A stretch of 64,000 nt of DNA. It comes from an uncultured SAR86 cluster bacterium. GTDB lineage: Bacteria > Pseudomonadota > Gammaproteobacteria > Magnimaribacterales > D2472. Every line of letters begins with the position of its first letter. The first letter of the stretch is position 1. Below, piece by piece: positions 26,621 to 42,930 of this stretch. The notes under the pieces are model-generated. The model made no database searches, was not told where the DNA came from, and saw nothing but the letters and a program-made list of their open reading frames with translations. Position numbers and translations under genes: made by a program. The DNA is taken from positions 74,222 through 138,221 of the forward strand of contig CACNUA010000002.1 of assembly GCA_902623535.1 (NCBI GenBank), written 5' to 3'.

Positions 26621-28660
26621 CTAGTTTAATCTTTTGAATCCACCATGCGAAAGTGGGAAGTCTATTAATTGATCGATTGAACCAGATTTATTGTATTGAT
26701 TTGATATCTTGGAAATTGTATCTTCAAAGGCATCAAGATAGCTTGAAAGGATTTGATCTGAATGCTCAGTGCAAAGGTAAATAGCATTTGATGCAAGGAA
26801 CCCTTTTTGAAGCATATCATGAGTAATGAATGACTTTATCTTGAGGAAATCGTTTTGTTGTGAGGAAAAGGATGGTAAAGGATCGAGACCAGAAATCTCA
26901 AAATTTAAATCATGATCACTAAATATCTTTTTCCAAGATTTTTTTATTTCTTTACCTTTTTTGCAAACAACTTCCCAAGATTTGACTTGATTCATTTCTT
27001 TTAAACTAGCTATTGCAGCAGTTGGGCCGATTCTTTCAGTCCAAAATGTACTGCTTATAAATGAACTTTGAGCATGATCCATCACTTCTTTTTTGCCGAC
27101 AATAGAGGTTATCGCATAACCATTGCCTAATGTTTTGCCATAAATTGCAATATCAGGTTGAACGTTAAATTTTTGATGCAAACCTGAATTTGTTTCCCTA
27201 AAACCTGATGTGCATTCGTCAAAAATCAGAACTATATTATTTTTATTAGCTAATTGACGCACCTCTTCAAGAAAATTATTTTTGGGAGGATCATTGCGCA
27301 TAACTTCCATTTTAATAATACCTATTTCATTATTCTTAATTAAAGTTTTTAAACCCTCAAGATCATTGTATTGAAATGAAAAAGAAGTACCCTCTAAATT
27401 TCTTGGTACGCCGTTAGGCTCTAGTCCAGGCAATAGGTGACCATCAAGATCCTTTGATTTTCCTAGATTTGCAGAGAGGTACCAATCGTGCCAACCATGA
27501 TAACCACAAATTGCAACATTATCTTTCCCAGATGCCGCTCTTGCAATTCTAATAGCAATAGAGTTCGCTTCACCTCCTGTTCTTGCGTACTTAACCATAT
27601 CAGCCCAAGGGTTGAGTTCAATTAATTGTTCGGCTAAATAAACTTCTTCGGGACAATTAAGGGTTGATAAATTACCTGATTCTACGGTTTTCAAGACTGC
27701 ACTATCTACTGCTGAGTTAGCATAACCAAGTAAATTGGTACCAACTCCCATTAAACAAACATCAAAATATTTTTTCTTATCCAGATCCCAAACTGTACAC
27801 CCCTTTGATTTACTAAAATATGAAGGCCATTTATCTGGCAAAAACATCTCTGGTCTCTTGGAAAGAAGCATATTTCCCCCAGGAATTATTTCTTTGGCTT
27901 TTTTATAAAGTTTTTGACCGGAGCTCACAGATGATCCCTCATTTCTTTTAAGGTGTTGGTTAGCAGTAAATAGTTTTTCATTGCGTTTGTATAAATTAAT
28001 TATCTCATCATATGAGAAAAAAATATCGTCAAAATTATCAAAAACATTTTTTATGACCGATAAGTCAGATTTATCGTCCAATGTTAGTCGTAATTCAGAA
28101 TAGTTTATTTGTGACTTTACATTTATTTTCTTAATGCTTTTTTCTTTTTTAGCAAATGTAGTTACATGCTCTCTATCAAATAATTTAGAAGCATTATTAT
28201 GTGAAGTTTGAATAAGTTCTTTTGTAAAAACTTCTATATCGAGGCCATCGGGATAAGTTGGAGGATTAGTATTGCTTAAGTAATCGACATTTGAGTTATT
28301 GAATTTTTCTAAAAAAGTATCAACCAAAATCGGATCTACAAAAGGACAATCGCCTGTAATTCTTACGATTGTTGTTAAATTATATTGAACGGCACAATTA
28401 TGGAACCTTTCAAGAACATCATTTTCTGAACCGACAAAAAATTTAATGTCCTTAGCCTCAAGAAGCTCTTTTAAGTCTTCATTTTCTTTATTATTGGGGA
28501 TTGCAACAATAATTTCATCAAGCTTCTTTGATTTTTTTAATCTCTCTACAATTATCTCAATTACTGACAATCCCTTGAATTCTTTTAAAACTTTTCTTGG
28601 AAGCCTCGTAGAAGTTAGTCTGGCTTGAATAATTGCTGCAATCAATTTAGTTGCATCCAT
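26621..28660 (-). CDS. bifunctional protein: SpsF/NeuA-like cytidylyltransferase domain fused to a class III (GSA-aminomutase-like) PLP aminotransferase
   Basis: Residues ~1-240 carry AAIIQARLTSTRLPRKVLKEF...ITGDCPFVDP (CTP_transf_3/SpsF-like). Residues ~247-679 carry KAKEIIPGGNMLLSKRP..., GGEANSIAIRIARA and IFDECTSGF (class III aminotransferase, HemL-like). Confidence 0.75.
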   Translation of the reverse strand: MDATKLIAAIIQARLTSTRLPRKVLKEFKGLSVIEIIVERLKKSKKLDEIIVAIPNNKENEDLKELLEAKDIKFFVGSENDVLERFHNCAVQYNLTTIVRITGDCPFVDPILVDTFLEKFNNSNVDYLSNTNPPTYPDGLDIEVFTKELIQTSHNNASKLFDREHVTTFAKKEKSIKKINVKSQINYSELRLTLDDKSDLSVIKNVFDNFDDIFFSYDEIINLYKRNEKLFTANQHLKRNEGSSVSSGQKLYKKAKEIIPGGNMLLSKRPEMFLPDKWPSYFSKSKGCTVWDLDKKKYFDVCLMGVGTNLLGYANSAVDSAVLKTVESGNLSTLNCPEEVYLAEQLIELNPWADMVKYARTGGEANSIAIRIARAASGKDNVAICGYHGWHDWYLSANLGKSKDLDGHLLPGLEPNGVPRNLEGTSFSFQYNDLEGLKTLIKNNEIGIIKMEVMRNDPPKNNFLEEVRQLANKNNIVLIFDECTSGFRETNSGLHQKFNVQPDIAIYGKTLGNGYAITSIVGKKEVMDHAQSSFISSTFWTERIGPTAAIASLKEMNQVKSWEVVCKKGKEIKKSWKKIFSDHDLNFEISGLDPLPSFSSQQNDFLKIKSFITHDMLQKGFLASNAIYLCTEHSDQILSSYLDAFEDTISKISNQYNKSGSIDQLIDFPLSHGGFKRLN

Positions 28661-30222
28661 TTAGATGGATTGAGAAGCTGCTCATCATCACAGGAAATAT
28701 CAGGAAAAATAAATGGTCTGTTTGATTGATCAAAGGATTGAGTTAAATCATTGAGGTGCTCGATATTATCTAGACCAACAATTACCTTATCAATCTGAGG
28801 AATCGATAATGGATAATGAAGGCAGGCCGCTAATGGAGAAACCTCATTATCATCCAGCCAATTATGCCAATCATTCCAAAGATTTTTCCATTTACTAAAT
28901 CTAGGTGGGATGTTTTCTCTTGTCAGTAGTAAGAGCCCTTGAAGAAATATAGATCTTGCATGAATTTCTACTCCAGCATCATGAAGCCTATTCAACCAAC
29001 CAGTTTCTAATAATCTTCTGTCTATGATATTGAAAGGTACTTGAACAATGTCTAAATCAATCAATGTAGAGGCTTTCGCTATCTCTTCTGGTGTGTATGC
29101 AGATAAACCTATTTTTTCTATAAGCCCTTCGGATTTAAGATCCATAAAGGTCTTGTTAAAAATTTTACCAAGCTCCTCTATCTGTGATGAATCATGCAAA
29201 AGTAATCCATATGCTTTATTAACATTCAATCTTTCAAGCGAAGATTTAACTTGACTGACAATCCAATCTGGAATGTCAGTAATCCCACCTGGTATTTGTG
29301 GAAGTTTAGTGATGACATACTTATTTTTCATACCAATTTTACCCAAACATTCCTCGCTATCACCATATGAAATAGAAGTATCATAAGTATCTATTCCATG
29401 ATCTTCAGCAATTTTTACAATCTTTGATGCTGTATTAAAATCAACCTGCCCATCATTGTTTGCAACTCCATACGGCATGCCAAATTGCACAGTTCCAATC
29501 GCAATCCTATTCATCTTCTCCTTTGAAAGTTTTATCTGAAAAAGCTGTTCAGCAAACTCAAAGTCATCGGGGGTATCAATATCCACTGCCCTATGCTTTG
29601 GAATAATTAGCATCGAGGAGTTGTTATGGAATTCATCCTCTCCAGAAAGTACTTGTTCTACCTTTGAAAGATATAGTTGTGCTGCATCATGATAGGCTGC
29701 CTCACAGTCTTGAGTTCTAGTGAGAATATAATCGGGTTGAAACATTTCAATTTTATCTTGCTCATTAACAAAAACTGCTCTTTGGATTGGATAGTTATAC
29801 TCTTTGCAAGCAACTATGCTTTTAGAATCAGTCTTTCTCATAAGATTAATCGCTTTTTCTATATCTGTTTCTGTTATAAAAACTGCTGTTGGATAAATAG
29901 TAAGTATCAAGTCTGGCTTGCCTACATTTTTTACATACCACTCTGTAGCATGCTTAATCACCTCTTTTGTACCAGTTTGATCATCTGCAAGCTCAGACGG
30001 CCTAAGGAATGGTACCGTTGCACCATATTGCTCGGCTATTATTTTAATTTTTTTACTTTCTGTTGAGACAATAATGTCATTTACGTAGTTAGAAGCTTTA
30101 AGAACAGAAATAGGCCAGCTAATCATTGGCTGATTACAAAACTCTTTAATATTTTTTAAAGGTATCCTTTCACTTCCACCTCTAGCTGGCAAAATTGCAA
30201 GAATATTCAAATTATCTTTCAT
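28642..30222 (-). CDS. bifunctional protein: N-acylneuraminate(NeuA)-type cytidylyltransferase fused to an aldo/keto reductase
   Basis: Residues 1-~230 carry LAILPARGGSERIPLKNIKEF...PFLRPSELADDQT (NeuA/PseF-like). Residues from Met237 carry MNRIAIGTVQFGMPYG...DTSISYGDSEE (AKR). An AAGGAG-N3-ATG sits exactly at the domain junction (29523..29512). Confidence 0.75.
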   Translation of the reverse strand: MKDNLNILAILPARGGSERIPLKNIKEFCNQPMISWPISVLKASNYVNDIIVSTESKKIKIIAEQYGATVPFLRPSELADDQTGTKEVIKHATEWYVKNVGKPDLILTIYPTAVFITETDIEKAINLMRKTDSKSIVACKEYNYPIQRAVFVNEQDKIEMFQPDYILTRTQDCEAAYHDAAQLYLSKVEQVLSGEDEFHNNSSMLIIPKHRAVDIDTPDDFEFAEQLFQIKLSKEKMNRIAIGTVQFGMPYGVANNDGQVDFNTASKIVKIAEDHGIDTYDTSISYGDSEECLGKIGMKNKYVITKLPQIPGGITDIPDWIVSQVKSSLERLNVNKAYGLLLHDSSQIEELGKIFNKTFMDLKSEGLIEKIGLSAYTPEEIAKASTLIDLDIVQVPFNIIDRRLLETGWLNRLHDAGVEIHARSIFLQGLLLLTRENIPPRFSKWKNLWNDWHNWLDDNEVSPLAACLHYPLSIPQIDKVIVGLDNIEHLNDLTQSFDQSNRPFIFPDISCDDEQLLNPSKWMQLN

Positions 30223-30243
30223 TACTTATCTGAATATAATTCA

Positions 30244-31542
30244 TTATGAAAACAACTTCACAAAATTATTAAATAATTCAATGTTTTCATTTCTATGAAC
30301 TTGTTTTGAAGAATTATTATTTCTTGAGCTCATAACGTCGTTTAACATTGAAATTAACCTATTTTCTACAAAAAAATATTGTTTTCCTAGATTTAGATCC
30401 TGAGTTATTGGCTTAAGTCTCCCTGATGCCAAGCCACATAATGAATCTAATGCTATTATTGGCAAAAATGCAGAAATCTCATTTCTAAGCTCATTAATAC
30501 ATTCATAATCATCTGGATTAAAGCTCATTAATTGAACTAAGGGTCCCTCATCAAGACCTTCAGTCATCAGATGAGTGTTCAACGCAATAGCATCTAGACG
30601 CCCATCAAGTAATGGTGACTCAACAACATCCATCCCTTTATAGTAAGGGAGTAATCCCATGTGGGTGTTAATTACTTTATTATTTAAGTTTTCAAGAGTA
30701 ATTTGATTAATAAGGCCACCCCCAGTAAATATTGTAAAAATATTGTCGGTGGCTGAAAGTTTTTCAATTTCTGAAAAATCTCTTATCTTGAAATAATTTA
30801 TCTTATTAACTCTAGAGAATTTCTTTAGATCTTTGTAATTGGAGATTAATTTATAGAGTTTTTTTAAACTAATCTTAGAAACATAATTATTTTCATCTCC
30901 TCTAATTACTAGTTTGCGCCAAATTCGTTTTGTAAAAAGTTTAATGCCATCTCTTTTGAGTTCATAAAAAAATCTCTTAGGGGTGAATTTGAGGACATAT
31001 ATTCCAATTATTTCAATATCAAGTTTTTTACATAATTCAGCTACTGTTAGAGAAAATAAACTAAATGCAGTTGGGCATAAAATAATCACACCTTTTATAT
31101 GTGTGCTCTCAGAATATAGGTGATCAAAATTATTAGTCAATTGAGGAGATAACTTCTGTAGCTTAATTTTTAATTCGTTATCAATTAATGCTTGCTTAAT
31201 TTCTGCAACAATATCTTTAGTGTATCCATTTAACTTTGGTGGACTTGATAAAGCATTATCTATAAGCATAAATGCGTTAAGGTAACTATTATCAAAGGGT
31301 GGCGATTTGTGATTCTTTTTTATCTCTGATTTAAATATTTTTGCATACCACATTAATTCATCTTCATGTGCAAACCCAAATCTTGATTTAGATTCTGAGT
31401 ACAAATTATGATTGTAGAATGATACATACCGCCTTAACTTTTCAAGCCATTTTTTTCCTAAAATAGTATTTGTTTGAATTTCAGATTCGATAACGAGTTT
31501 TTCTTCCTTAGTTAGGGTCCTCAAAATTTTGGGAACTTGCAT
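30244..31542 (-). CDS. formyltransferase-domain protein with an uncharacterised N-terminal extension
   Basis: 432 aa. The C-terminal half has VINTHMGLLPYYKGMDVVESPLLDG...THLMTEGLDEGPL, resembling the Fmt/ArnA/sugar N-formyltransferase core (N-x-H ... D). The first ~150 aa have no motif I recognise. Confidence 0.55.
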   Translation of the reverse strand: MQVPKILRTLTKEEKLVIESEIQTNTILGKKWLEKLRRYVSFYNHNLYSESKSRFGFAHEDELMWYAKIFKSEIKKNHKSPPFDNSYLNAFMLIDNALSSPPKLNGYTKDIVAEIKQALIDNELKIKLQKLSPQLTNNFDHLYSESTHIKGVIILCPTAFSLFSLTVAELCKKLDIEIIGIYVLKFTPKRFFYELKRDGIKLFTKRIWRKLVIRGDENNYVSKISLKKLYKLISNYKDLKKFSRVNKINYFKIRDFSEIEKLSATDNIFTIFTGGGLINQITLENLNNKVINTHMGLLPYYKGMDVVESPLLDGRLDAIALNTHLMTEGLDEGPLVQLMSFNPDDYECINELRNEISAFLPIIALDSLCGLASGRLKPITQDLNLGKQYFFVENRLISMLNDVMSSRNNNSSKQVHRNENIELFNNFVKLFS

Positions 31543-31545
31543 TTA

Positions 31546-32574
31546 CTAGTTTTCCTTGATTGAACAATGCCATGAACGCCCATCAAGTCCTAATAAAGCC
31601 TCACCGGAAATTGTAAAGTCATCTTTAGTTTGATGTCCTTCAGAGAAAGAAATCACACCGAATTTAAATAAAACCATTGGAAGGAAATCTTTTTTAAAAC
31701 TAGCAATTTGATACCAGTTTGAGAGATCATTAGAATAAAAAATCTTTGAATGCTTTGACTTAACTGCACTTCCAGGTTCAATTGAAGTTTGAACAAGATA
31801 AGAACCATCACCTAGTCTTTTTGTATACCAAACTGGAGCATCAAATGACTTACCTTGACTGAGCTCCATAGTATTTCTATCTAAAATTTGGAGTTTTGGA
31901 GATTCATTGGGAGAATCCATAATCCAATAAATTTTATCCTCCCTAAACATTAATGAGACAGTTCTCCATTTCTGCGAGCCATCACCATGAAATTTTGGAT
32001 TCGAGAAATCCTCATCTGAAAACTCAATTAAAAAGCATTCACCATCATTATCACCAGTGGTAATCCAGATCGAATTTTTATAATGGTCTTTGTAGGCTCC
32101 GTGAATATGCTTAATATTTTTTATTTCATTTACAACTTTGAAAGATTCACCATCATCTCTGGATACCCATAGAGGAACATCATTCCCGGTTGTATTTCTT
32201 CCATACTCACCAAAGACAATACATCCTTTGCTTATTGCGATTGAATTATGAAGAACACAGCGAGATTGTCTTAACTTGGATAAAGTCTTCAATGATTTTT
32301 TTTTGATATGAAAACTGTAAATCATTCCCTGATATATAACTATCACAACAGTTTTCTTATAATTAAAGAAGGCATTTGATTTATCTAGTCGAAATAACCT
32401 TCTAAAGATTCTAAGTTTAAGAAATGGATTGTTGTTTTTAATTTTGAAGTAAATTACTTCTTTATTAAGTGAAAATTCAAAAGCATTTCCATTACTAACT
32501 ATATAGTCACCAGTTAGAGAATCATAAAAATGAATTATTTCATATCTCATCAAGTTTCTTTTAATGATTTGCAT
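31546..32574 (-). CDS. hypothetical protein, probably beta-propeller with Asp-box-like motifs
   Basis: 342 aa with one good Asp-box (VSRDDGESF) and degenerate ones (HGDGSQKW, TGDNDGECF, RLGDGSYL). No confident family assignment. Confidence 0.4.
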   Translation of the reverse strand: MQIIKRNLMRYEIIHFYDSLTGDYIVSNGNAFEFSLNKEVIYFKIKNNNPFLKLRIFRRLFRLDKSNAFFNYKKTVVIVIYQGMIYSFHIKKKSLKTLSKLRQSRCVLHNSIAISKGCIVFGEYGRNTTGNDVPLWVSRDDGESFKVVNEIKNIKHIHGAYKDHYKNSIWITTGDNDGECFLIEFSDEDFSNPKFHGDGSQKWRTVSLMFREDKIYWIMDSPNESPKLQILDRNTMELSQGKSFDAPVWYTKRLGDGSYLVQTSIEPGSAVKSKHSKIFYSNDLSNWYQIASFKKDFLPMVLFKFGVISFSEGHQTKDDFTISGEALLGLDGRSWHCSIKEN

Positions 32575-32750: not shown

Positions 32751-33314
32751 CTAGGAAACTTCATAAGTATCAGAACCAATAATTGAATCAATTACTGAAG
32801 TTAGCCAAATCATATGTATACACTCAACAATGTTGTAAGCATGGCTATCAACCCAAAAACTAATATCAGATATTTTTGACAACGAGTTTGTAGCTTCCCT
32901 GCCAGTGAAAGTTATAACTTTAAGACCCATTTTTTTTGCGGTTTCTGCACCCTTTACAAGATTTAAAGACTCCCCGCTTACACTAATGAGAATTACAGCA
33001 TCATTACTATTTGCATAAATATTTAATGCTTCAGAAACCCAATTTTCATAGCCATAATCATTAGACAAGCATGTAATAAGATTTGCTTCATTAAATGTTA
33101 AAGATTTTATTTTTGCTTGTTTAGAAAAATCAACTGCTCCGTGAGCAGATATTGAAGCACTGGCACCATTACCAGCAAATATAAGTTTTGAATTATTTTT
33201 TTTTACCTCTTTAACAATATCCTCGAAAGCTAAGAGGTTATTTTCAAGATTTTCATTGATTAAAAGATGATTATATTTTTTAAAATAGTCTTTATAGAAT
33301 TTATTTAAAATCAT
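32751..33314 (-). CDS. SIS-domain sugar-phosphate isomerase (GmhA-like)
   Basis: 187 aa. FAGNGASASISAHGAVDF and ILISVSGES are typical of the phosphoheptose isomerase-type SIS domain. No CBS domains are present. Confidence 0.7.
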   Translation of the reverse strand: MILNKFYKDYFKKYNHLLINENLENNLLAFEDIVKEVKKNNSKLIFAGNGASASISAHGAVDFSKQAKIKSLTFNEANLITCLSNDYGYENWVSEALNIYANSNDAVILISVSGESLNLVKGAETAKKMGLKVITFTGREATNSLSKISDISFWVDSHAYNIVECIHMIWLTSVIDSIIGSDTYEVS

Positions 33315-33337: not shown

Positions 33338-34375
33338 TTAATCATGTTCAGGTATAGAAAATTTTGTTTTCCATTTTGAGTCACTTGTATAAATTTTATT
33401 TACCAATTTCATGGTTCTTAGTGCGTCTATAGGACTTCCGTTTTTAACTTCTTTATTCTTAATGATTATATTTAAAAAATAATCAACTTCGGACTGCCAT
33501 GAAGGATCATTATTATATTTAATTATTTGCTCTGTGGGATCTCCCATATCATTATCTGGGTCTGATTCAATGATGGTTAAGGTTTCTGCGCCATAACTTT
33601 TTGAGCCAGATAGGATGCCACCTAAAATTAGCGATCCTTTTTCAAAATTTATTTCTAGATTAAATTTGTGCCTCCACTGAGTTGCTGAGGAATGAATAAA
33701 CGCCACAACACCAGATTTAGTTTGCATTAATGCATATGCATTATCTTCTACATCATGTTTCCAAAAATCATTTGAAACAAAGCTATGTATTCTTTCAAAT
33801 TCTCCACCAAATAATCTCATAAGATCAAGCATATGAATACCTTGATCAAGCAGTACACCACCACCCGCAATTTTTCTCTTAGTTCTCCATATAGGCTGAT
33901 TAAATGTAATTAGTTTTGACTTACCATAGGTACCTTTTAAATTAATTATTCTTCCCATTTTCTTAGAATTTATAATTCTTTGTGCCTCTAAAACCGAATC
34001 ATGATATCGATGATTAAAACCATACATTAGTTTCAGTGAAGGGTTTTCGTTGTAAACCTCTATAACTTTGCTAATATCATCTACAGATCTGCCAGGTGGC
34101 TTTTCACAAAAAACATGGATTCCTTTATGTAACGCCTTTATTGTTACCTTAGGTGCAATATCATTTGGCATACAAATAAATATTGCATCAATCGAATCCT
34201 TGAGTAATTCTTCATAATTTTCATGTACGTCAATCCCTTCAAGTTTGAGGGGCTGTTTTTTAAACTTCTCATCACAAATACTTACAACTGTTGCATATTG
34301 ATGATTCTGTAGACAATCAAATCTTTTTGATCCCACAACTCCAAAGCCTGCAATACCAATTTTAAGTCTTTTCAT
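33338..34375 (-). CDS. Gfo/Idh/MocA family NAD(P)-dependent oxidoreductase
   Basis: LKIGIAGFGVVGSKRF Rossmann N-terminus and the CEKPPGRS (EKP) motif. Confidence 0.8.
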   Translation of the reverse strand: MKRLKIGIAGFGVVGSKRFDCLQNHQYATVVSICDEKFKKQPLKLEGIDVHENYEELLKDSIDAIFICMPNDIAPKVTIKALHKGIHVFCEKPPGRSVDDISKVIEVYNENPSLKLMYGFNHRYHDSVLEAQRIINSKKMGRIINLKGTYGKSKLITFNQPIWRTKRKIAGGGVLLDQGIHMLDLMRLFGGEFERIHSFVSNDFWKHDVEDNAYALMQTKSGVVAFIHSSATQWRHKFNLEINFEKGSLILGGILSGSKSYGAETLTIIESDPDNDMGDPTEQIIKYNNDPSWQSEVDYFLNIIIKNKEVKNGSPIDALRTMKLVNKIYTSDSKWKTKFSIPEHD

Positions 34376-36191: not shown

Positions 36192-38021
36192 CTAGGAAGA
36201 CTTTACATAAATAACATCCACCCAATCAGTCCTTCCATTCATTGGATTTTTTGAAATATGAGAGATGTCATATAACTTAAAGCCAAATGGATTGAGTAAA
36301 GATTCAAGCTCATGAAAAGAAAGTTGCTTTTCATAATAATCATAAAACTTAACCTCTGAAATTATAATATCGATAATTGAAAGGCTTTTCCCTAGACCCT
36401 TAAGAATATCAATTTCAAAACTCTGCGTATCAAGTTTTAATAAATTAATTCTTTTAATGTTATTCTCATTGATATATTCATCCAAATTTTTGACCATGAC
36501 TTTTCGGGGATGATTGATAGTCTCAGAGTAGTTTTTAAGTGGTTTATCTTCACTAATAATTTTATTTAAATCTATTGAATCCTTGCTCTTCAAATTAATT
36601 TTGTTGAATCCAGAGATGCCTGAGTTCAAATCATGCGTATAAAATTCTTTATCTTTTTCAGTAATTTCTCCTGCTGCAAATTTATTAACTATAATTTCTG
36701 AGTATTGATTGGCTAACTGATCAAGTGATTCCCAACATTCATGCTGAGGCTCAAAGCAATGAATAGTAGATTTAGGCCATATTTGCTTAAATTGCAAAAT
36801 TGAAACACCATCATTTGAACCAACATCAAAAATTACTGGATCATCAATCTCAATAAGATATTTAAGTACCTTTTCTCTGTTAAATTTTTCAAAATATTCT
36901 TGTGTTCTTAATTTATTCTGACCTAAATCAACTGGGGTTAATTTTTCTGTTTCCTCGTTATCTTGTTTTGATACAACTTTTTTAGCCAATACCGCCATAT
37001 GCGAGCTGGCGCCAAGTTCCCTAATTACATTTTGGAAAACTGCAAGGCTTTGTTTAGATTTAATTGACTTTAAATGGGTAAATGTACTGCTCTCGTTCTG
37101 GAGGAAGTTTTTAATAATATCTATATCAAAATTACCAGGGGTTGAGATATCTTTAACCTCAAAGTTAGCCCTTAATAAAAAATGTGTAATATTCTGGGTT
37201 GTAAAAGCTTGAAGATGCATTGGAGGAAAAATACCATGAGCTAATGGTCTAAATTCATTATAACCAATAGCTTGATTATCTAAACCCAGTGCGTTTGGAG
37301 TCTGAAAATACATCAGACCATTATCATTCAGTAAATCTCTTAATGAAGTAATAAATAAAAAAGGATCATGTAGGTGCTCTAGTAATTCAAAGTGAAGTAT
37401 CAGATCAAAGGAGTTTTTGTTTTTTTTAACATAATCCTCAACAGATGTATGAGATAAATTCAGATTATGGCTTATTGGGTTATTTATAGCATTTTCGTCA
37501 ATGTCAATTCCATAGAGTTCAATCTTTGAAGATAGTCCTAGGCCATCTATCGCAACATCAAGTTCATGAAGAAATGCTCCTGAACTGCAGCCAACATCTA
37601 AAACTTTTATAGTTTTTTGTGATGTATTTTGAAGAAGATCTTTAATTTGGTTTAATACTAAATCTGTTCTTTCACTGAGAATAACTCCTCCCACACCTGA
37701 TCTTGCTTTAAGAAGTTTTTCAAATTTTTTATTACACTCACAAAAATTATAATAAAAATCTAAGGCCTTAAGATTTGGTGCTGGGTTTACATAGTTAGTT
37801 AGGCATTTCTTGCATTGAGAAATATCATAACGATCATCAAATTTTGCAAGATTATTCTGTTCTTCAGAACCGCATACGGGACATTTCCTGCTATAAAAAT
37901 CATTAGAAAACTTATCAAATACCTTTCGACTATCAGAAATCCTTAAGTTATAAATATTTCTTGCCTGCTCAATAGTCCTGTTTTCTTTCAAAAAAGATAT
38001 GTAGTTAATTTTTTCTTTCAT
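36192..38021 (-). CDS. double methyltransferase: Zn-ribbon plus class I SAM-MTase domain fused to an FkbM-family MTase domain
   Basis: CPVCGS...CKKC, then motif I VLDVGCSSGAFL (residues ~140-150). After a linker around residues 349-370 there is a second MTase domain with VIFDVGSNDGVS (FkbM-type). Confidence 0.7.
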   Translation of the reverse strand: MKEKINYISFLKENRTIEQARNIYNLRISDSRKVFDKFSNDFYSRKCPVCGSEEQNNLAKFDDRYDISQCKKCLTNYVNPAPNLKALDFYYNFCECNKKFEKLLKARSGVGGVILSERTDLVLNQIKDLLQNTSQKTIKVLDVGCSSGAFLHELDVAIDGLGLSSKIELYGIDIDENAINNPISHNLNLSHTSVEDYVKKNKNSFDLILHFELLEHLHDPFLFITSLRDLLNDNGLMYFQTPNALGLDNQAIGYNEFRPLAHGIFPPMHLQAFTTQNITHFLLRANFEVKDISTPGNFDIDIIKNFLQNESSTFTHLKSIKSKQSLAVFQNVIRELGASSHMAVLAKKVVSKQDNEETEKLTPVDLGQNKLRTQEYFEKFNREKVLKYLIEIDDPVIFDVGSNDGVSILQFKQIWPKSTIHCFEPQHECWESLDQLANQYSEIIVNKFAAGEITEKDKEFYTHDLNSGISGFNKINLKSKDSIDLNKIISEDKPLKNYSETINHPRKVMVKNLDEYINENNIKRINLLKLDTQSFEIDILKGLGKSLSIIDIIISEVKFYDYYEKQLSFHELESLLNPFGFKLYDISHISKNPMNGRTDWVDVIYVKSS

Positions 38022-38097: not shown

Positions 38098-39897
38098 TTA
38101 TGCATTTTTAAAGTCAATAAAAAAGTCTGACCAAGCCTTAATAGGTTTTTTGTGCTCTGTTAAACAAATTTTTTTAAATTCGTGAATTGCCTCCCTACAA
38201 AGATCACTATTCCACCATAATAATGGATCATTATGTATTTTATTAATATGTTTTGCTGCATCTTTTGGGCACGTATGATAAATGTTTGCTTTTTTTAGGA
38301 TATCAACTACCTCGTTGTGAAGATCAATGACTTCAAACAATTCTTCTTTCATCAGCAAAATTGTAGGTATGCCTGAGAAGATTGATTCTGAAAGTGTAGT
38401 CTGTGGATAGGTGCATATTATTATTTTTGATTTTTTTATTACAGGAATAAATTTTGCATCATTTAGTAAATTTTTATTTCCAAAATAGTGAGCAAGCTTC
38501 TTTTGATCTAATACATCACGACCATCAATATAAGCAGGTGGAGTCTTTATTCTTAATTTATCTCTGGCATTTTTATCAAGATGATTTGAGAAATCTTTCC
38601 ACTGATACAATAGTTGCTTAATTTGAGACGAGCCTAAGGCTTGTGATGTAAGCCTAGAACATAGTATAGGTCCATTAAAGGCAACAAGGGTAATTAAAGA
38701 ATTTTTTTTATACTTCCAATTTTTAAAAAAAAGTTTGTTAGGTGGTAATCGGTGATGATTTTCCACCCACTCTTTCCCCCAAACAATTTTTTTGTCGCTT
38801 ATTTTTTCTTGATGATTAAAAACACTGTACTTTGGATAAAGTCCACCCCCATGTGCAGATACTATAATATTCGAACCATTTCTTTTGCACTCTGCCATCC
38901 AGATTTTAAATAAGTCATTATTAAAGTGAGCGTTTGATGTGAAAATTAGTTTTGTCTGTTTAATATTCGATTGCAGGGAATGTAATTCATCAAAATCTTC
39001 TAGGTATGTTTTTGGTATATCTTTTGAGATTCTGCTACACAAAAATTTCTCGAAATCATTTACATAATCAAATTGCGACAAAAATTCATAACCTAAAACT
39101 TCACTATTGCCTTTTGCTTTTATGCTTAAAGAATTATAGGATCTTGGCAAAACTCCTAATTTCAAAGCAAGCCTAAAATGAAAAAATTTTGGAAAGTAAG
39201 TGTGATAGAGAGTTATAAAACCATCATTTTTGAGTAAGAATTTATTAATAAATTTTGCAAGTAAATCATAAATTCTTATAAGCCTCTGTTTAATAGCAAA
39301 AACGTAACCATCTTCGTTTAGGCGTTTATCGTTGGTTTTTGGCTTATAAAGGTAATTACTTTCTATAACATCGAGTTCTACATTATCAAATTTTCTAAAA
39401 AAAAGTATTGATGAAAATAATTCGTAATTCCACTCTTGTTGTGAAAATATTGGAATAGCCTCATTATATTCAAGTGGTGGACTTCTTCTGTTGTTTAAAA
39501 TTATTGATGCTTTAAAGTTACGTTTTTCTCTCTTAATACAGTCAGATACACTCCATCTGTCAAATATCACACCAATATATTGAAGGAGCCAAGGACCTAT
39601 TATAATTCTCCAGTAATCAACACTCCTTTCTTTTGCGTGGATTTTAGATAATTCAATTGATAGCTCTTTGAGAATCTTTTCATATAATTTTTCAAGATAT
39701 TGATGATCTAGTTTAATTTTATTTCTATCATTCCAATGATATTCAAAAAAAGAGTAATTTTTAAGAATATCAAAATTGTTAAAAAAAGGAGAAATGCACC
39801 ACTCGCCAATAAAGAAATTGTTCACATTATTCAGTGCATCTTCTTTATTTCCATAAATAACTAAGTTGACTGGTTTGATATAATGCATTCTCTCCAT
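38098..39897 (-). CDS. uncharacterised ~600-aa putative transferase (paralog B)
   Basis: Paralog of ORF 34391..36187 (see the shared motif blocks there). Its start codon overlaps the start codon of the divergent sulfotransferase gene (CATG at 39895..39898). An alternative Met lies at residue 4. Confidence 0.5.
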   Translation of the reverse strand: MERMHYIKPVNLVIYGNKEDALNNVNNFFIGEWCISPFFNNFDILKNYSFFEYHWNDRNKIKLDHQYLEKLYEKILKELSIELSKIHAKERSVDYWRIIIGPWLLQYIGVIFDRWSVSDCIKREKRNFKASIILNNRRSPPLEYNEAIPIFSQQEWNYELFSSILFFRKFDNVELDVIESNYLYKPKTNDKRLNEDGYVFAIKQRLIRIYDLLAKFINKFLLKNDGFITLYHTYFPKFFHFRLALKLGVLPRSYNSLSIKAKGNSEVLGYEFLSQFDYVNDFEKFLCSRISKDIPKTYLEDFDELHSLQSNIKQTKLIFTSNAHFNNDLFKIWMAECKRNGSNIIVSAHGGGLYPKYSVFNHQEKISDKKIVWGKEWVENHHRLPPNKLFFKNWKYKKNSLITLVAFNGPILCSRLTSQALGSSQIKQLLYQWKDFSNHLDKNARDKLRIKTPPAYIDGRDVLDQKKLAHYFGNKNLLNDAKFIPVIKKSKIIICTYPQTTLSESIFSGIPTILLMKEELFEVIDLHNEVVDILKKANIYHTCPKDAAKHINKIHNDPLLWWNSDLCREAIHEFKKICLTEHKKPIKAWSDFFIDFKNA

Positions 39898-40954
39898 GAA
39901 AAAATTTATAAAAAAAGTATTAATTAATGTACTTGGAATAAGGTTTTTTAACTTAATTATACCCCTAGTCAGTTCTACAGAGCATAATATAAAGAAATTC
40001 TCATATTCTTTAAATTACACTTTTTTTAAAGATAAAAATCACGATTATATTAAAGTTAACCAGCCTCTATTACTGATAACTCAAGTGCAAAGAAGTGGAG
40101 GCACATTAATATCTCAACTTCTCGATAATCATAGAGAATTACATGCTTTTCCTAGCGAACTAATTCTTACAAATCCAAAGTGGGATTGGTCAAAAAAGAA
40201 AAATTTTATTTCCTATAGATCTAGAGAAATGAGAGAGTATTCAGAATTAGGTTTCTATATCAAAAGATCCAAAGCAAATAATGATTTAGCAAATAAATTT
40301 GACTTTGATCTTTTAAAGCAAAGATCCATTTATGAAAGTATTTCGAAGAAAACTGAACGCGACTATTTCAATGCATATTTCACATCATTTTTTAATAGCT
40401 TTGATAATTATATTAACAACGGAAAGAATAAAAAATTTATTTCGGCATTTACTCCACGTGCAATAATGTATGACAAAACAATATCAAATTTTTTTTCAAT
40501 TTATCCAGATGGTCACATAGTTACGGTTGTAAGAAATCCATTGTCGTGGCTTGCGAGTGCTACAAAACATGATAAAAAATATAAAAAAGATTTAAATGCC
40601 TCTATTTCGATTTGGAAAAAATCAACTAAAGCATCGATTACTAATGCCATATCAAATCAAAATATAACTCTTATTATATTTGAAGACTTTTTAGAAGATA
40701 TTGAGCTTGGTGTGCTAAAACTTTGTAAAAGATTAAATTTAAGCTTTGAAAAAAGTTTACTAACACCAACATTTAATGGAAACCCTGTACTCTCAGATTC
40801 TTCATTCAAAGCATCAAAAGGAATTGACAAGTCTGCATTAGACAGATCAAAGCTTATAGATATGTCTAAAATAGACACAGTATTGATTGAGGAAGTAAAT
40901 GCACTGTATGAAGAAGCTCAGCAAGTTGTAAAAAAATTATACGGTGATAATTAA
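39896..40954 (+). CDS. sulfotransferase family protein
   Basis: 352 aa with a PAPS 5'-PSB loop (TQVQRSGGTLISQLLDNH) and a 3'-PB motif (VVRNPLSWLASA). Confidence 0.7.
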   Translation: MKKFIKKVLINVLGIRFFNLIIPLVSSTEHNIKKFSYSLNYTFFKDKNHDYIKVNQPLLLITQVQRSGGTLISQLLDNHRELHAFPSELILTNPKWDWSKKKNFISYRSREMREYSELGFYIKRSKANNDLANKFDFDLLKQRSIYESISKKTERDYFNAYFTSFFNSFDNYINNGKNKKFISAFTPRAIMYDKTISNFFSIYPDGHIVTVVRNPLSWLASATKHDKKYKKDLNASISIWKKSTKASITNAISNQNITLIIFEDFLEDIELGVLKLCKRLNLSFEKSLLTPTFNGNPVLSDSSFKASKGIDKSALDRSKLIDMSKIDTVLIEEVNALYEEAQQVVKKLYGDN

Positions 40955-40990
40955 GCTCAGAACTTTAGTTTAATCAATATTTTAGAATGA

Positions 40991-41007: not shown

Positions 41008-41037
41008 ATTGATTTTGAATATTATGATCAAATGATT

Positions 41038-41697
41038 TCATTTATTTAAGTTTTTTTCTTTAAACAATAATTGAATTGACATTCTTTGATGAAGATCTTC
41101 ATTAAAATAAAAACCATTTTCTGAAAAAGATAACTTATTTATCAATGTAAATTGAGATGTTTTTGTAAATGAGTGACTATGATCAAGTTTATTTATTTTG
41201 TTTAAATCTTTATGGTGTATGTATTCATTTGTAATCTTATGGGGCGTATCAAAATCATAAATTGATAAGAATCCACCAGATTTAAGAACTCTGTTAATTT
41301 CTGATATTGTTTTGGAATAATATTCACCTTCTAATAAATATAAAAAAAAGCCAAGATGAATATAGTCAAATGATTTCTCTTCGAACATGCTAAGGTCGTA
41401 AGATACTCCATTAAATAATTTAAGATCTGGATATAATTCAGAAGCATATCGATTGGCTTTATCGCTTGGATCAATCCCATAACCCTTTAATGATAACTCT
41501 TTGCTCAAGTAGTTCAGAACAAAACAAGAGCCAGATCCAATCTCTAACATATTTGTTAATTTATGCTTTGAGCACAAAGGTTTCATCCAAACTACTAAGG
41601 ATTCAAACTGCGATTTTTCTCTATCATTAAGTCTAGATAAATTCCTTTCATGGTAATCATTTCCATGCTCTCTTAGAATTTTGAAAAAACTACTCAT
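41038..41697 (-). CDS. class I SAM-dependent methyltransferase
   Basis: 219 aa with motif I MLEIGSGSCFVLNYL, a post-I acidic GIDPS, and LKSGGFLSIYDF. Confidence 0.7.
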   Translation of the reverse strand: MSSFFKILREHGNDYHERNLSRLNDREKSQFESLVVWMKPLCSKHKLTNMLEIGSGSCFVLNYLSKELSLKGYGIDPSDKANRYASELYPDLKLFNGVSYDLSMFEEKSFDYIHLGFFLYLLEGEYYSKTISEINRVLKSGGFLSIYDFDTPHKITNEYIHHKDLNKINKLDHSHSFTKTSQFTLINKLSFSENGFYFNEDLHQRMSIQLLFKEKNLNK

Positions 41698-41851
41698 AAT
41701 CCTCAGCTAATGTATCATTCCCAGTCGATAACAAAATATTCTGTAGATCGCACCACTATAAAACTTTTAAATTACTTTTACTAACTTTGTATTTTTTAAC
41801 AAGTACACTGTGCAATCAGTAACTTGCCAATATGTTTGTATAAAATTTTTT

Positions 41852-42460
41852 TCATTTTAGACTTCTTGCAAATTTTCTTACTTTTTGCATATGCTTTTCA
41901 AAGTCACTTTTTTTCATATTTGGAAGGACTGAATAGAATCTTAAATATTTTGTCTTTAATCCTCCTAATTGAAATACGGACTTTTTTAATCTTCTATAGG
42001 GGATATTGTCAAAAAGAGAAAAATTAAAATAGCTTATCATTGGTCCTCCATAAGTCATTGAAACAATCCCAATTTTATTTTTCATTGCTCCAGCAACAGG
42101 ATATCCATAATTTCCAAAAAACTTACTATCAGGTAATAATGATTTGTAAGAAAAAAACCAAGTTGGATGAAGAACCCAGTCAATCCAATTCTCTAAAACT
42201 CCGCTCATTCTTAAGTTATGACAAGCGCTCATTAGAAACATAACATCAGCATCCTCAAGTCTATTTCTATAATCAGTTACTAACTTTGGTGGAGGATTAA
42301 TATCACTTCTATAAAAAGGTAATTGTTCTTCTTCATCAAATAAATTAATCAAGTCTACTTCATGTCCAATATTTTTTGCTTCATCGATAAAAGTATCTCT
42401 TACAGATGCATTAAACGAATTTTTAGTGTTGTAATGACCAAAAACTATACAAATTTTCAT
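41852..42460 (-). CDS. flavodoxin-like fold NAD(P)H dehydrogenase (quinone) family protein
   Basis: 202 aa. MKICIVFGHYNTKNSFNASVRD...GHEVDLINL is typical of the Flavodoxin_2/NQO-type family. Confidence 0.65.
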   Translation of the reverse strand: MKICIVFGHYNTKNSFNASVRDTFIDEAKNIGHEVDLINLFDEEEQLPFYRSDINPPPKLVTDYRNRLEDADVMFLMSACHNLRMSGVLENWIDWVLHPTWFFSYKSLLPDSKFFGNYGYPVAGAMKNKIGIVSMTYGGPMISYFNFSLFDNIPYRRLKKSVFQLGGLKTKYLRFYSVLPNMKKSDFEKHMQKVRKFARSLK

Positions 42461-42470
42461 GCTTCAAGGT

Positions 42471-42929
42471 TTATACAATGTAAATTAGCAGTAGTATTAT
42501 GATGATAATCCCTATAGGTGTTAAATTATCAATTTTTTCTAAAATAGCCCGTTTATTTAGCTTTTTAGAAGTAATATTGTCTATTTTGTACCCATGATTA
42601 TCTTCTTTTATATCTATGAGTACATTTTCAGTATGAGATGTTGTAATATCTTCGTTGTACTCATAAGAAAGAGTTAAATCTCCCTCTGTGGGTACATTAT
42701 TTTTTACCTGAATATAAGGTTTCTTGGCCTTTTTCTCAATTTCATTCAGTTCTTCAAGAATTGCGTCTCTTTTTTTTCTAGCTATATGAATGTCGCCTGT
42801 TTCTAAAGACTTTTTAATAAAATCTTTCCCAATAATTGATGATATCTTTTTCGAGACCCTTTTTTGAATAAAATAAATATTCTTATTTTTTCCCCTTAAA
42901 ACAAGGTATTTATCTTTATTTGTACTCAT
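42471..42929 (-). CDS. hypothetical tail-anchored protein whose N-terminus resembles a tyrosine-integrase N-terminal domain; possible integrase remnant
   Basis: YLVLRGKNKNIYFIQKRVSKKISSIIGKDFIKKSLETGDIHIARKKRDAILEEL resembles the YL-x-RG-x-YYF-RRRVP...SL-x-T-x-D integrase N-terminal (DUF6538-like) pattern from memory. There is no catalytic domain. The C-terminal tail is hydrophobic (LTPIGIIIIILLLIYIV). Confidence 0.35.
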   Translation of the reverse strand: MSTNKDKYLVLRGKNKNIYFIQKRVSKKISSIIGKDFIKKSLETGDIHIARKKRDAILEELNEIEKKAKKPYIQVKNNVPTEGDLTLSYEYNEDITTSHTENVLIDIKEDNHGYKIDNITSKKLNKRAILEKIDNLTPIGIIIIILLLIYIV

Positions 42930-42930
42930 G

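Follow-up and report, generated by a model that had tools for sequence, protein, structure and literature searches.

Several nonulosonic acid clusters contain units comparable to those of the locus described here. A Vibrio pseudaminic acid (Pse) cluster carries a fusion of a cytidylyltransferase and an aldo/keto reductase (AKR) (PMC7371886), and the O-antigen cluster of Legionella pneumophila Sg6/Sg12 lists a trio composed of AKR, cytidylyltransferase, and class III aminotransferase (PMC3694923). In Herbaspirillum, a gene of the LIC12162 family lies downstream of neuABC (PMC6679464), and a preprint reports that nonulosonic acids are formylated and methylated at the CMP level (10.64898/2026.04.20.719630).

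The island studied here lies in a 64-kb window (the whole stretch of DNA analyzed) of a SAR86 gammaproteobacterium, between tadA (26158-26616) and guaA (43068-44648). It holds 13 ORFs, all intact: nine in the same orientation on the minus strand (26621 to 39897), a divergent one on the plus strand (39896-40954), and three more on the minus strand (41038-41697, 41852-42460, and 42471-42929). These coordinates agree with the layout given in the first-pass annotation (nine co-oriented minus-strand genes, a divergent sulfotransferase, and three more minus-strand genes), and the Pfam/NCBIfam profile scores of the 13 ORFs confirmed nearly all its domain calls.

In gammaproteobacteria other than SAR86, guaA and tadA are direct neighbors with 25-200 bp between them, while in SAR86 relatives the gap starts at 1.4 kb, can exceed 10 kb, and is filled with differing glycan genes. 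Clustering at 90% identity left the middle island genes as singletons, with 119-367 members per cluster for the flank genes. As this synteny variability shows, the guaA-tadA interval is a hypervariable "flexible island" slot in this SAR86 gammaproteobacterium. The block is a real, strain-variable cell-surface sugar-decoration cassette, largely ordinary in kind; its earlier reading as a strain-variable surface-glycan cassette between housekeeping genes is upheld by the variable gap and the singleton middle genes, and the synteny comparison found differing slot contents and not a block conserved in relatives. The island genes are mosaic, and they evolve under purifying selection: dN/dS against the related variant L001 is 0.065-0.165, with dS from 0.3 to more than 1. 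The gene order is retained in at least four divergent variants. The island is also more A/T- and homopolymer-rich than its flanks, as had been judged by eye: GC is 0.305 overall and 0.292 in the distal half, versus 0.350-0.361 in the flanks, and runs of six or more A/T occur 6.5 times per kb, versus 3.4-3.7. GC3 does not differ (0.19-0.26 in the island and 0.20-0.30 in the flanks), so a foreign codon signature is absent.

The most likely role of the island, in our view, is to activate acidic sugars by linkage to CMP, tailor them, and transfer them, given the family and fold of its LIC12162 proteins, the co-occurrence of this family with NeuB, and the fusion units shared with Pse clusters. The first of these units (26621..28660, minus strand), whose stop codon is followed after 4 nt by the tadA start, joins a SpsF-like CTP_transf_3 cytidylyltransferase (residues 8-195; Pfam, 97.6 bits) to a GSA-aminomutase-like class III PLP aminotransferase (residues ~245-650; 110.9 bits). 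In the PDB, its sequence is best matched by 6oew ("Cytidylyltransferase"), GSAM, and C-6' aminotransferases; for the aminotransferase domain, the nearest proteins are GSAM and C-6' aminotransferases of sugars, the latter acting after an oxidase. The protein has 120 members in its 90% cluster. The second unit (28642..30222, minus strand) joins a PseF-type CMP-nonulosonate synthetase (CTP_transf_3, residues 8-229; TIGR03584, 246.1 bits, cut-off 205.7) to an aldo/keto reductase (residues 239-498; Aldo_ket_red, 103.5 bits). It matches PDB 9ftb ("NeuA") at 2.6e-53 and is alike in architecture to the fusion of the Vibrio Pse cluster (PMC7371886). The unit of cytidylyltransferase and class III aminotransferase is recurrent in Pse clusters, and the trio that adds AKR was found in them repeatedly among metagenomic loci. 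Both fusions are recurrent accessory units of Pse clusters, such as that of Legionella Sg6/12. What had been described as a nearly complete tailoring kit is better read as accessory or late modules of nonulosonic acid clusters, usually found beside PseC/PseG/NeuB.

The two proteins of ~600 aa encoded at 34391-36187 and 38098..39897 (both minus strand) are paralogs (32% identity, E 5e-85) scoring 346.5 and 328.5 bits, respectively, against TIGR04331 (LIC12162 family, cut-off 225); homologs of the former carry PF27859, the newer Pfam entry for the same family. The public gene call of 38098..39897 starts 9 nt later (596 aa), and this gene is 100% identical to one on MDTD01164063.1. The AlphaFold model of 34391..36187 (pLDDT 91.6) predicts a GT-B fold into which a helical segment of ~200 aa is inserted. 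All 16 of its Foldseek PDB matches at E<1e-3 have a GT-B fold, and 15 are named glycosyltransferases or related GT-B enzymes; matches include 6eji, HMW1C, MGD1, MurG, and UGTs. The best ones are GT4/GT28/GT1/GT41 enzymes using UDP/TDP sugars, not sialyltransferases. A PDB sequence search with the LIC12162 protein detected no relative, the profile comparison with a GT4 protein gave no significant similarity, and a literature search yielded no experimentally characterized member. The two proteins belong to a large catalogued family with a predicted glycosyltransferase-like fold. The first-pass annotation had recognized their paralogy but considered them orphans, which the TIGR04331 scores contradict, and its view that the island has no recognizable glycosyltransferase is superseded, both being members of the TIGR04331/PF27859 transferase family and the model of 34391-36187 being confidently GT-B. 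Pfam found no GT2, GT4, Wzx, or Wzy domain in the island, and ABC, NeuB, and KdsA domains are likewise absent.

The neighborhoods of 45 metagenomic LIC12162 loci, each of at least 10 kb, also favor a role in acidic-sugar decoration. A NeuB-type synthase gene was found near LIC12162 in 26/45 loci and a CTP_transf_3 gene in 24/45, with one or the other in 33/45. The Gfo gene is directly downstream of LIC12162 in 18 loci, the SIS isomerase gene adjoins Gfo and LIC12162 in 20, and an FkbM gene lies beside LIC12162 in 13. In two loci (L003 and L103) LIC12162 sits within complete Pse clusters, and in a third (L076) a LIC-FkbM-LIC-Gfo-SIS block sits within a Wzy/GT2 O-antigen locus with PseC/PseG/NeuB. 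Copy-number counts did not support a pairing of two cytidylyltransferases with two transferases.

The remaining genes encode mainly tailoring functions. The formyltransferase-like protein (30244..31542, minus strand) weakly matches Formyl_trans_N (28 bits, cut-off 26.1): an N-terminal extension of ~150 aa precedes the catalytic domain (roughly residues 150-400), in which alignment to PurN 3tqr shows a conserved Asn-His-Asp triad ("viNtHmgllPyykG", "teglDeGpl"). Part of the N-terminal extension (residues 30-56) resembles the one at the C terminus of a Kordiimonas propeller protein. The adjacent gene (31546..32574, minus strand) encodes a cytoplasmic beta-propeller of 342 aa with one Asp-box, its only domain match being of this type; the AlphaFold model (pLDDT 96.7) bears out the earlier propeller-like call, and Foldseek returned only generic propellers (TM ~0.6). 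Its invariant residues are R58, Y124, H156, H158, D163, D175, D220, and D296. The propeller is an obligate neighbor of the formyltransferase-like gene, with a Formyl_trans_N gene coming after it in four independent loci. Then come a GmhA-like SIS-domain sugar-phosphate isomerase (32751..33314, minus strand; SIS_2, 46.8 bits), which scores 73.7 bits against TIGR00441 gmhA, under the equivalog cut-off of 209, and a Gfo/Idh/MocA NAD(P)-dependent sugar oxidoreductase (33338..34375, minus strand; Pfam, 89.8 and 66 bits). Between the two LIC12162 genes lies a double methyltransferase (36192..38021, minus strand) with Methyltransf_23 (residues 127-289, 70.5 bits) and FkbM (residues 399-583, 58.8 bits) domains. 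The divergent gene (39896..40954, plus strand) encodes a PAPS-type sulfotransferase (Sulfotransfer_3, 46.8 bits, cut-off 27), and 41038..41697 (minus strand) a class I SAM methyltransferase (Methyltransf_11, 47.5 bits) with 57% identity to a gene of L001. The arrangement of methyltransferase, sulfotransferase, and LIC12162 also occurs in L002.

On the whole, we favor, with moderate confidence, a late-stage cassette that decorates an O-antigen- or capsule-like surface glycan with CMP-activated nonulosonic/ulosonic acidic sugars, and we infer the enzymatic steps, the donors, and the acceptor as follows. The two CTP_transf_3 enzymes, i.e., the PseF equivalog fused to AKR and the SpsF-like protein fused to the class III aminotransferase, would produce the CMP-sugar donors. 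An extra amino group may be introduced through oxidation by Gfo/Idh/MocA followed by transamination by the class III aminotransferase, and the new amine could be N-formylated by the formyltransferase-like enzyme with its beta-propeller partner. The aldo-keto reductase, the three methyltransferase domains, and the sulfotransferase would perform further tailoring, and the two LIC12162 paralogs, with their predicted GT-B fold, would transfer the activated sugars to the glycan. Initiation, polymerization, and export of the glycan would be encoded outside the island; a PglC-type phosphoglycosyltransferase and a PglF-type dehydratase are found 20 kb from it. The sugar skeleton would also be made elsewhere, either by pse-type core genes in the genome or by a four-gene cluster of the window together with the island SIS and Gfo.

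It counts against this reading that NeuB, PseB, PseC, PseG, and PseH are absent from the 64-kb window, from the 10 kb past its right end, and from the four closest island variants (L074, L075, L077, and L078, of which L074 has the gene order of L001), which leaves a Pse-type donor with no source in these stretches. The four-gene cluster (56126..59280, minus strand; NCBIfam), outside the island and 22 kb off, encodes a KdsB-like cytidylyltransferase, an HpcH/HpaI class II aldolase, a D-2-hydroxyacid dehydrogenase, and an IMPase-family phosphatase. With 211-249 members per 90% cluster, it is conserved at core-gene frequency. It may supply the island with an ulosonic acid made without NeuB, with HpcH as the candidate synthase.

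It is possible, although rather doubtful, that this route is self-sufficient and yields an ulosonic acid, Kdo-like or higher, with no need of a synthase of the NeuB/KdsA type. SIS would isomerize a sugar phosphate, and the IMPase-like phosphatase would dephosphorylate it; once Gfo and the 2-hydroxyacid dehydrogenase had adjusted its redox state, HpcH would condense it with pyruvate or hydroxypyruvate, and the KdsB-like enzyme would activate the product with CMP. The LIC12162 proteins would be devoted to the transfer of that sugar, and the PseF/SpsF-like fusions would serve tailored derivatives. Kdo aldolase activity on pyruvate and arabinose is established enzymology and offers a precedent. 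Coherently, NeuB is absent from all five closest SAR86 island variants, and homologs of the cluster are contiguous with Gfo-SIS-LIC12162 in three loci: L106 holds the six genes of this route in a co-oriented row next to LIC12162 (LIC-FkbM-HpcH-KdsB-like-Gfo-SIS-phosphatase-2-hydroxyacid dehydrogenase), L117 has 6/6 genes, its dehydrogenase gene preceding LIC12162, and L093 has 5/6. HpcH-KdsB-like pairs occur with LIC12162 in five loci (L003, L114, L122, L138, and L140). However, a full or near-full contiguous set is limited to these 3/45 loci, and the majority of Gfo-SIS loci carry NeuB instead. Moreover, the KdsB-like gene (206 bits versus 193 for one NCBIfam subfamily, but 140 versus 155 for the TIGR00466 equivalog, which it fails) may be a mere housekeeping KdsB, the literature search yielded no HpcH-family ulosonate synthase, and the PseF equivalog is left unexplained.

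A polyol-phosphate (teichoic acid-like) cassette, an option raised in the first-pass annotation, appears improbable. In this case, the fusions would make CDP-polyol and CDP-aminopolyol, as in TarIJ/Bcs1, and the LIC12162 proteins would act as TagF-type phosphotransferases. The logic of fusing a cytidylyltransferase to a reductase resembles that of the CDP-ribitol synthase Bcs1, the TagF fold is likewise GT-B-like, and the window lacks NeuB. Nevertheless, both cytidylyltransferases are CTP_transf_3 (the CMP-ulosonate synthetase family), not IspD/TagD types, and one exceeds the PseF equivalog cut-off; Pfam found no Glyphos_transf domain, TagF structures are absent from the top 50 fold matches, and LIC12162 occurs alongside NeuB in more than half of the loci.

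Slightly less probable still is a non-functional block, either what is left of a formerly complete Pse O-antigen locus or the passive cargo of an element that inserted at the guaA 3' end: the missing core Pse genes, the weak DUF6538 ORF adjoining guaA, the mobile flavodoxin-like gene, and, in the relative L012, a second copy of 163 nt from the guaA 3' end, which lies 1.3 kb farther downstream and is typical of site-specific integration, would fit it, but the intact ORFs, the low dN/dS, the gene order maintained in divergent variants, the flank-like GC3, the absence of att repeats or att-like direct repeats from the window, and the lack of a catalytic integrase domain in the Pfam search of the island ORFs speak against it.

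The flavodoxin-fold NAD(P)H oxidoreductase gene (41852..42460, minus strand; Flavodoxin_2, 71.4 bits) is 90-91% identical in nucleotides across SAR86 lineages in which guaA is only 69-71% identical, and has 2108 members in its 90% cluster; it is probably a separate cargo of the slot, outside the glycan pathway. Beside guaA, 42471..42929 (minus strand) had been taken for an integrase-like fragment, a weak reading that is not demonstrable: its DUF6538 (integrase N-terminus) score is below threshold (25.9, cut-off 27), and it is a conserved, full-length ORF of 152 aa with a hydrophobic C-terminal tail, whose full-length ortholog in another SAR86 (L009) has 78% identity.

The ORF map of the region between tadA (26158-26616) and guaA (43068-44648) showed nine genes on the minus strand, all in the same direction (26621-39897), followed by a divergent gene on the plus strand (39896-40954) and by three further minus-strand genes ending at position 42929. 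This is exactly the layout proposed by the first-pass annotation, and the Pfam and NCBIfam searches agreed almost item by item with the domain content that it had listed. Indeed, starting from tadA, the island encodes a CTP_transf_3 domain fused to a class III aminotransferase (CT–AT, 26621-28660), a CTP_transf_3 domain fused to an aldo/keto reductase (PseF–AKR, 28642-30222), a protein with a weak Formyl_trans_N match (30244-31542), a 342-aa protein whose one match is of the Asp-box type (31546-32574), a GmhA-like SIS protein (32751-33314), a Gfo/Idh/MocA protein (33338-34375), and a double methyltransferase (Methyltransf_23 and FkbM, 36192-38021) lying between two ~600-aa proteins (34391-36187 and 38098-39897). 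Then come a Sulfotransfer_3 protein, encoded by the divergent gene, another methyltransferase, and a Flavodoxin_2 protein. No GT2/GT4, Wzx, Wzy, ABC, NeuB, or KdsA domain was found by these searches in 26621-42929.

Spacing between the genes is very tight. The end of the CT–AT gene comes 4 nt short of the tadA start (26616-26621), so tadA may share a transcript with the island, and the CT–AT and PseF–AKR genes share 19 nt (28642-28660). When the longest ORFs are taken, the starts of the second ~600-aa protein and of the divergent sulfotransferase have 2 nt in common (39896-39897); with the public 596-aa call of the former, the distance to the sulfotransferase becomes 8 nt, thus leaving no intergenic promoter space. 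Promoter and terminator scans gave counts not above those of shuffled sequence. An antisense ORF of 129 aa with a TTG start (29677-30066, plus strand), rich in Cys, Phe, and Ile, lies inside PseF–AKR and is probably spurious, arising from A/T-rich sequence.

The island had been described as richer in A/T and in homopolymers than its flanks, and this holds: its GC content is 0.305 (0.292 in the distal half) versus 0.350-0.361 in the flanks, and A/T runs of at least 6 nt occur at 6.5 per kb versus 3.4-3.7 per kb. The GC content at the third codon position is the same in the island and flanks; thus, the lower GC stems from the amino-acid composition of the proteins and is not a sign of foreign codon usage.

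We compared the guaA–tadA junction across SAR86 and other gammaproteobacteria. The GuaA sequence had no exact match on record; at the protein level it shares 90-92% identity with GuaA of SAR86 single-cell and metagenome-assembled genomes, and the order guaB–permease–TonB receptor–HPRT–guaA is kept throughout the SAR86 compared. Outside SAR86, guaA is followed by tadA within 25-200 bp (loci L031, L032, L034, L038, and L058). Within SAR86, the gap measures 1.4 kb in L006, 1.8 kb in L019, 6.7-9.6 kb in seven loci, more than 10 kb in eleven, and 16.4 kb in the window. The cargo also changes. The slot of SAR86 AH-324-F14 (L009, 14325-21557) carries genes unlike those of the window, encoding an AT3 acyltransferase, an NTP-transferase, a LicD-like protein, an Fe-ADH, and the C-terminal domain of a TPP enzyme, a set reminiscent of phosphonate or choline/phosphocholine-type glycan decoration. 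GT8-like and GT2 genes, an ABC exporter, and methyltransferases occupy the slot of L007, and a GMC oxidoreductase with two AT3-SGNH O-acyltransferases that of L005. With flanks constant and cargo swapped in these three loci, the proposal of a strain-variable cassette between housekeeping genes was borne out: the guaA–tadA junction houses a flexible glycan island of the replacement type.

We found no earlier description in the literature of the guaA–tadA slot as a SAR86 island. A hypervariable outer-membrane-modification region has already been reported from a SAR86 single cell (Rusch et al. 2013, PMC3569297), and the slot shares with that region and with SAR11 HVR2 the conserved flanks, the strain-swapped cargo, the glycan-modification genes, an apparent rarity of specific alleles in metagenomes, as judged from cluster sizes, and a GC content below that of the flanks.

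The metagenomic contig L001 has the same gene order as the window, and its identity to the window shifts stepwise along the island. Amino-acid identity was 94% for CT–AT and 96% for PseF–AKR (dS 0.29-0.33 for both), 76-80% for the formyltransferase-like, Asp-box, and Gfo proteins (dS 0.65-1.06), 79% for the SIS protein, and 58% for the first ~600-aa protein, with dS saturated in the last two. For the island genes in which it could be calculated, dN/dS between the window and L001 was 0.065-0.165. Purifying selection acts on these genes, and recombination has shaped the island. As a crude stand-in for metagenomic recruitment, we considered the size of the clusters at 90% identity: by this proxy, flank genes had 119-367 members and the middle and distal island genes overall 1-24, with 1-3 for the formyltransferase-like, Asp-box, SIS, and Gfo genes and 21-24 for the first ~600-aa protein and the double methyltransferase. 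Unlike in an all-or-none hypervariable replacement, the two tadA-proximal genes are near-core by the same proxy (117-120 members), so the slot is a mosaic.

The two ~600-aa proteins had been taken for orphans, in an island with no recognisable glycosyltransferase. Both turned out to belong to the NCBIfam family TIGR04331, “LIC12162 family transferase,” with 346.5 and 328.5 bits (cut-off 225) over model positions 11-585 and 2-585 of 585; they are paralogues with 32% identity. Neither matched a family of the Pfam-A copy used, because PF27859 (“LIC12162”), which is present in the precomputed annotation of homologues of both, is newer than that copy. The family is large, with 7,424 representatives at 50% identity in a profile search (E ≤ 1e-10), and takes its name from a gene of the Leptospira interrogans O-antigen region. 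In the literature, we found no biochemical or structural characterisation of TIGR04331/PF27859, and the only mention found of the family was a paper on Herbaspirillum, in which a LIC12162-family gene lies downstream of neuABC (PMC6679464). The transferase activity implied by the family name is thus putative. One protein of the representative library (P0136, 1,224 aa) consists of two tandem full-length LIC12162 modules, echoing the two paralogues of the window.

The AlphaFold model of the first paralogue (pLDDT 91.6, pTM 0.92, built on 51 sequences) predicts two Rossmann-like domains in a GT-B architecture. Searched with Foldseek against the PDB, all 16 matches at E < 1e-3 had the GT-B fold, and 15 of them are named glycosyltransferases or related GT-B enzymes; the best was PglH (6eji, E 4.8e-6), and the others included HMW1C, MGD1, MurG, and GT1 UGTs (probability 1.00, target-normalised TM-score up to 0.53). 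The LIC12162 profile had no match at E ≤ 10 among PDB sequences, its hhalign comparison with a GT4 protein was not significant (probability 0.5%), and tblastn against plasmids gave no match. The family has invariant HGG (355-357) and WW (563-564) motifs and a C-terminal “TTFxE…PTIL” segment, which aligns with the GT4 nucleotide-binding helix in an hhalign match that is itself not significant. Having the predicted fold, no sequence relative in the PDB, and no significant profile match to the GT4 protein, LIC12162 would be an outlier among GT-B proteins, with invariant motifs of its own: it shares with PglH, MurG, MGD1, HMW1C, and the GT1 UGTs the predicted two-Rossmann architecture and differs from the solved enzymes in being ~200 residues longer, in a helical insertion, and in the family-specific HGG and WW motifs. 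The putative transfer enzymes are recognisable as a catalogued family with a predicted GT-B fold.

The gene neighbourhoods of the family were studied on 80 metagenomic LIC12162 loci, and the counts refer to the 45 with a length of at least 10 kb. A NeuB-like synthase was present in 26/45, a CTP_transf_3 gene in 24/45, and one or the other in 33/45. Gfo and SIS genes lie directly downstream of LIC12162 in 18-20 of the 45, an FkbM methyltransferase adjoins it in 13, and two LIC12162 copies occur in 10. In L003 and L103, LIC12162 is found within complete Pse clusters (PseC, PseF, a PseG–formyltransferase fusion, PIG-L, and NeuB), and in L076 a LIC–FkbM–LIC–Gfo–SIS block is part of a Wzy/GT2 O-antigen locus with PseC, PseG, and NeuB. 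The family at large thus has nonulosonic-acid genes as neighbours here as in Herbaspirillum; the window differs in that LIC12162 is duplicated, with the FkbM methyltransferase between the copies. A pairing of the two cytidylyltransferases with the two LIC12162 transferases was also considered and found no support in copy numbers, in a test confounded by flank length. Between NeuB and the LIC12162 pair of L076 (4422-7450), there are three genes, for a DUF4910/DUF2172 aminopeptidase-like protein, a 306-aa HpcH/citrate-lyase-beta-like protein, and an aminoglycoside-3-N-acetyltransferase-like protein; in the published Legionella Sg6/12 cluster (PMC3694923), too, NeuB has a “putative aminopeptidase” beside it.

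The tadA-proximal genes point in the same direction. The trio of aldo/keto reductase, SpsF-like cytidylyltransferase, and class III aminotransferase recurs in LIC12162-bearing Pse clusters and is present in the O-antigen cluster of Legionella pneumophila Sg6/Sg12 (PMC3694923), and a cytidylyltransferase–AKR fusion is known from the Pse cluster of Vibrio sp. B9-25K2 (PMC7371886). PseF–AKR matches the PseF equivalog TIGR03584 over residues 8-229 with 246.1 bits (cut-off 205.7). On the basis of the shared neighbourhoods and these precedents, the island parts are accessory and late modules of nonulosonic-acid loci. The island has in common with the Legionella and Vibrio Pse clusters the PseF-type cytidylyltransferase with aldo/keto reductase, the SpsF-like cytidylyltransferase beside a GSA-aminomutase-like class III aminotransferase, the formyl-/acyl-transferases, and the methyltransferases, whereas it has neither their PseB, PseC, PseG, PseH, and PseI/NeuB nor the HisH/HisF/WbuX amidotransferase set that attends these genes elsewhere.

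The 342-aa Asp-box protein is a beta-propeller in its AlphaFold model (pLDDT 96.7), with generic Foldseek matches (WD40/Kelch/Drp35). We dropped the idea of a sialidase-like enzyme, as Foldseek gave nothing sialidase-specific; the invariant His/Asp/Arg set of the propeller suggests an active or metal-binding site. In four independent loci of other bacteria, the propeller gene is followed by a Formyl_trans_N gene. Furthermore, a domain of ~150 aa found at the N-terminus of the SAR86 formyltransferase-like protein is found at the C-terminus of a Kordiimonas propeller (L069, 10001-12299), where residues 401-427 match residues 30-56 of the window protein (E 3e-6). By this swapped extension, the two proteins are connected in Rosetta-stone fashion. 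In L072, another propeller paralogue and a 97-aa ORF stand between the two genes of the pair.

The Formyl_trans_N match of the formyltransferase-like protein is just above threshold (28.0 bits, cut-off 26.1), and the Asn-His-Asp catalytic triad is kept in its core when aligned to PurN (3tqr). By these residues, it has the signature of an N10-formyl-THF-dependent sugar N-formyltransferase, with putative enzyme activity. It shares the Formyl_trans_N core and the triad with PseJ (which is among its remote PDB matches), QdtF, and WlaRD; unlike these, it has the ~150-aa N-terminal extension and a dedicated propeller partner. To our knowledge, no characterised sugar formyltransferase has such a partner.

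The ORFs scanned in the window (before 9965 and after 20344) included no PseB/C/G/H/I or other NeuB-type gene, and such genes were likewise missing from the 10 kb past its right end and from the closest island variants (L074, L075, L077, and L078). Similarly, 26621-42929 encodes no Wzx/Wzy flippase, polymerase, ABC exporter, or initiating transferase; Wzy, GT2, or ABC genes are present in related LIC12162 loci, and a divergent gene for a PglC-like initiating phosphoglycosyltransferase lies outside the island (63290-63871). The first-pass interpretation stands as to the strain-variable glycan cassette and fails as to the unrecognisable transferases and the nearly complete kit: the island is rather the late half of a nonulosonic/ulosonic-acid system, with the Pse core absent from it.

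We lean, with modest confidence, towards a mechanism in three stages. The two CTP_transf_3 enzymes would make CMP-sugars; these would be tailored by oxidation/transamination, N-formylation, reduction, methylation, and sulfation; and both LIC12162 proteins would transfer the sugar onto a glycan whose assembly machinery would be encoded elsewhere.

The main competing explanation is a NeuB-independent aldolase route, which we consider possible though rather unlikely. It involves a conserved minus-strand cluster 22 kb away (56126-59280), encoding a KdsB-like cytidylyltransferase, an HpcH/HpaI aldolase, a D-2-hydroxyacid dehydrogenase, and an IMPase-like phosphatase. In L106 and L117, the homologues of all four form one contiguous stretch with Gfo–SIS and LIC12162, as they mostly do in L093. 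Gene neighbourhood, on which the whole explanation is based, suggests a six-gene class II aldolase pathway leading to a CMP-activated keto-deoxy acid, the genes of which would here lie partly in the variable island and partly in the conserved locus. The KdsB-like gene could equally be read as a housekeeping enzyme. A literature search on HpcH-based ulosonate synthesis found nothing relevant. PtmF of the legionaminic pathway was rejected as an analogue of the SIS gene, being listed in the literature as a 326-aa oxidoreductase. Further genes in 56126-63871 encode a GSDH/PQQ-type propeller dehydrogenase-like protein, a 634-aa PglF/CapD-like dehydratase, and an SDR; this second sugar cluster is followed by the divergent PglC-like gene and then by housekeeping genes.

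A broader combination of these elements seems to us unlikely. In it, the LIC12162 family would be an unrecognised GT-B family of CMP-ulosonic/nonulosonic-acid transferases, fed in this SAR86 lineage independently of NeuB: the HpcH class II aldolase would build the keto-deoxy acid together with the GmhA-like isomerase, the IMPase-like phosphatase, two dehydrogenases, and the KdsB-like activator, in a pathway divided between island and conserved cluster. As a separate part, the exchanged domain would join propeller and formyltransferase-like protein in a new, two-component sugar N-formylation module.

Polyol-phosphate (teichoic-acid-like, CDP-polyol) decoration is very unlikely, as both cytidylyltransferases fall under CTP_transf_3 rather than IspD/TagD, no Glyphos_transf match was found, and no TagF structure is among the top 50 fold matches. 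That the island is a decaying remnant is very unlikely as well.

SAR86 is among the most abundant uncultured bacterial groups of the surface ocean, and its surface glycans probably mediate contact with phages and grazers. The comparison shows the guaA–tadA junction to be a recombination-prone glycan slot, and the cargo of putative acidic-sugar (nonulosonic-type) decoration makes it a definite locus on which studies of population genomics and phage receptors can focus. Nonulosonic-acid transferases are poorly known beyond sialyltransferases and Maf proteins; LIC12162, having gained a predicted GT-B fold and a statistical tie to NeuB/CMP-synthetase genes, becomes a tractable candidate for those missing from O-antigen/capsule loci. 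Should the split aldolase cluster prove real, it would provide another way into ulosonic acids. Current understanding is not overturned by these results, which refine annotation and nominate targets.

At the guaA side, the ORF proposed as an integrase-like fragment (42471-42929) is intact (152 aa) and kept at 78% identity in another SAR86. Its DUF6538 match is below threshold (25.9, cut-off 27), it has no tyrosine recombinase catalytic domain, and in 25900-43400 there are no guaA-derived direct repeats, the att-like candidates being chance-level A/T-rich matches; the proposal was therefore not upheld. A GIsul2-like integrative element at the guaA 3′ end, with a tyrosine recombinase gene and flanking att repeats, is not supported by these searches. 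The tRNA and Rfam scans of the window found nothing, thus giving no sign of tRNA-linked integration. Site-specific insertion at guaA does occur in the clade: SAR86 AG-893-O10 (L012) has a 163-nt copy of the guaA 3′ end at 12740-12901, 1.3 kb past guaA on its downstream side. The two copies enclose a GuaB/CBS-like ORF, as is also the case in L054 and L056.

Finally, the flavodoxin-fold gene (41852-42460) shows 90-91% nucleotide identity to its SAR86 homologues (L027, 11562-12171; L054, 7794-8396) where guaA is only 69-71% identical, and the homology ends at the gene ends. It looks like a single-gene cassette that has been swapped within the clade next to the guaA 3′ end; it is probably independently mobile slot cargo, outside the glycan pathway, and its cluster at 90% identity counts 2,108 members.
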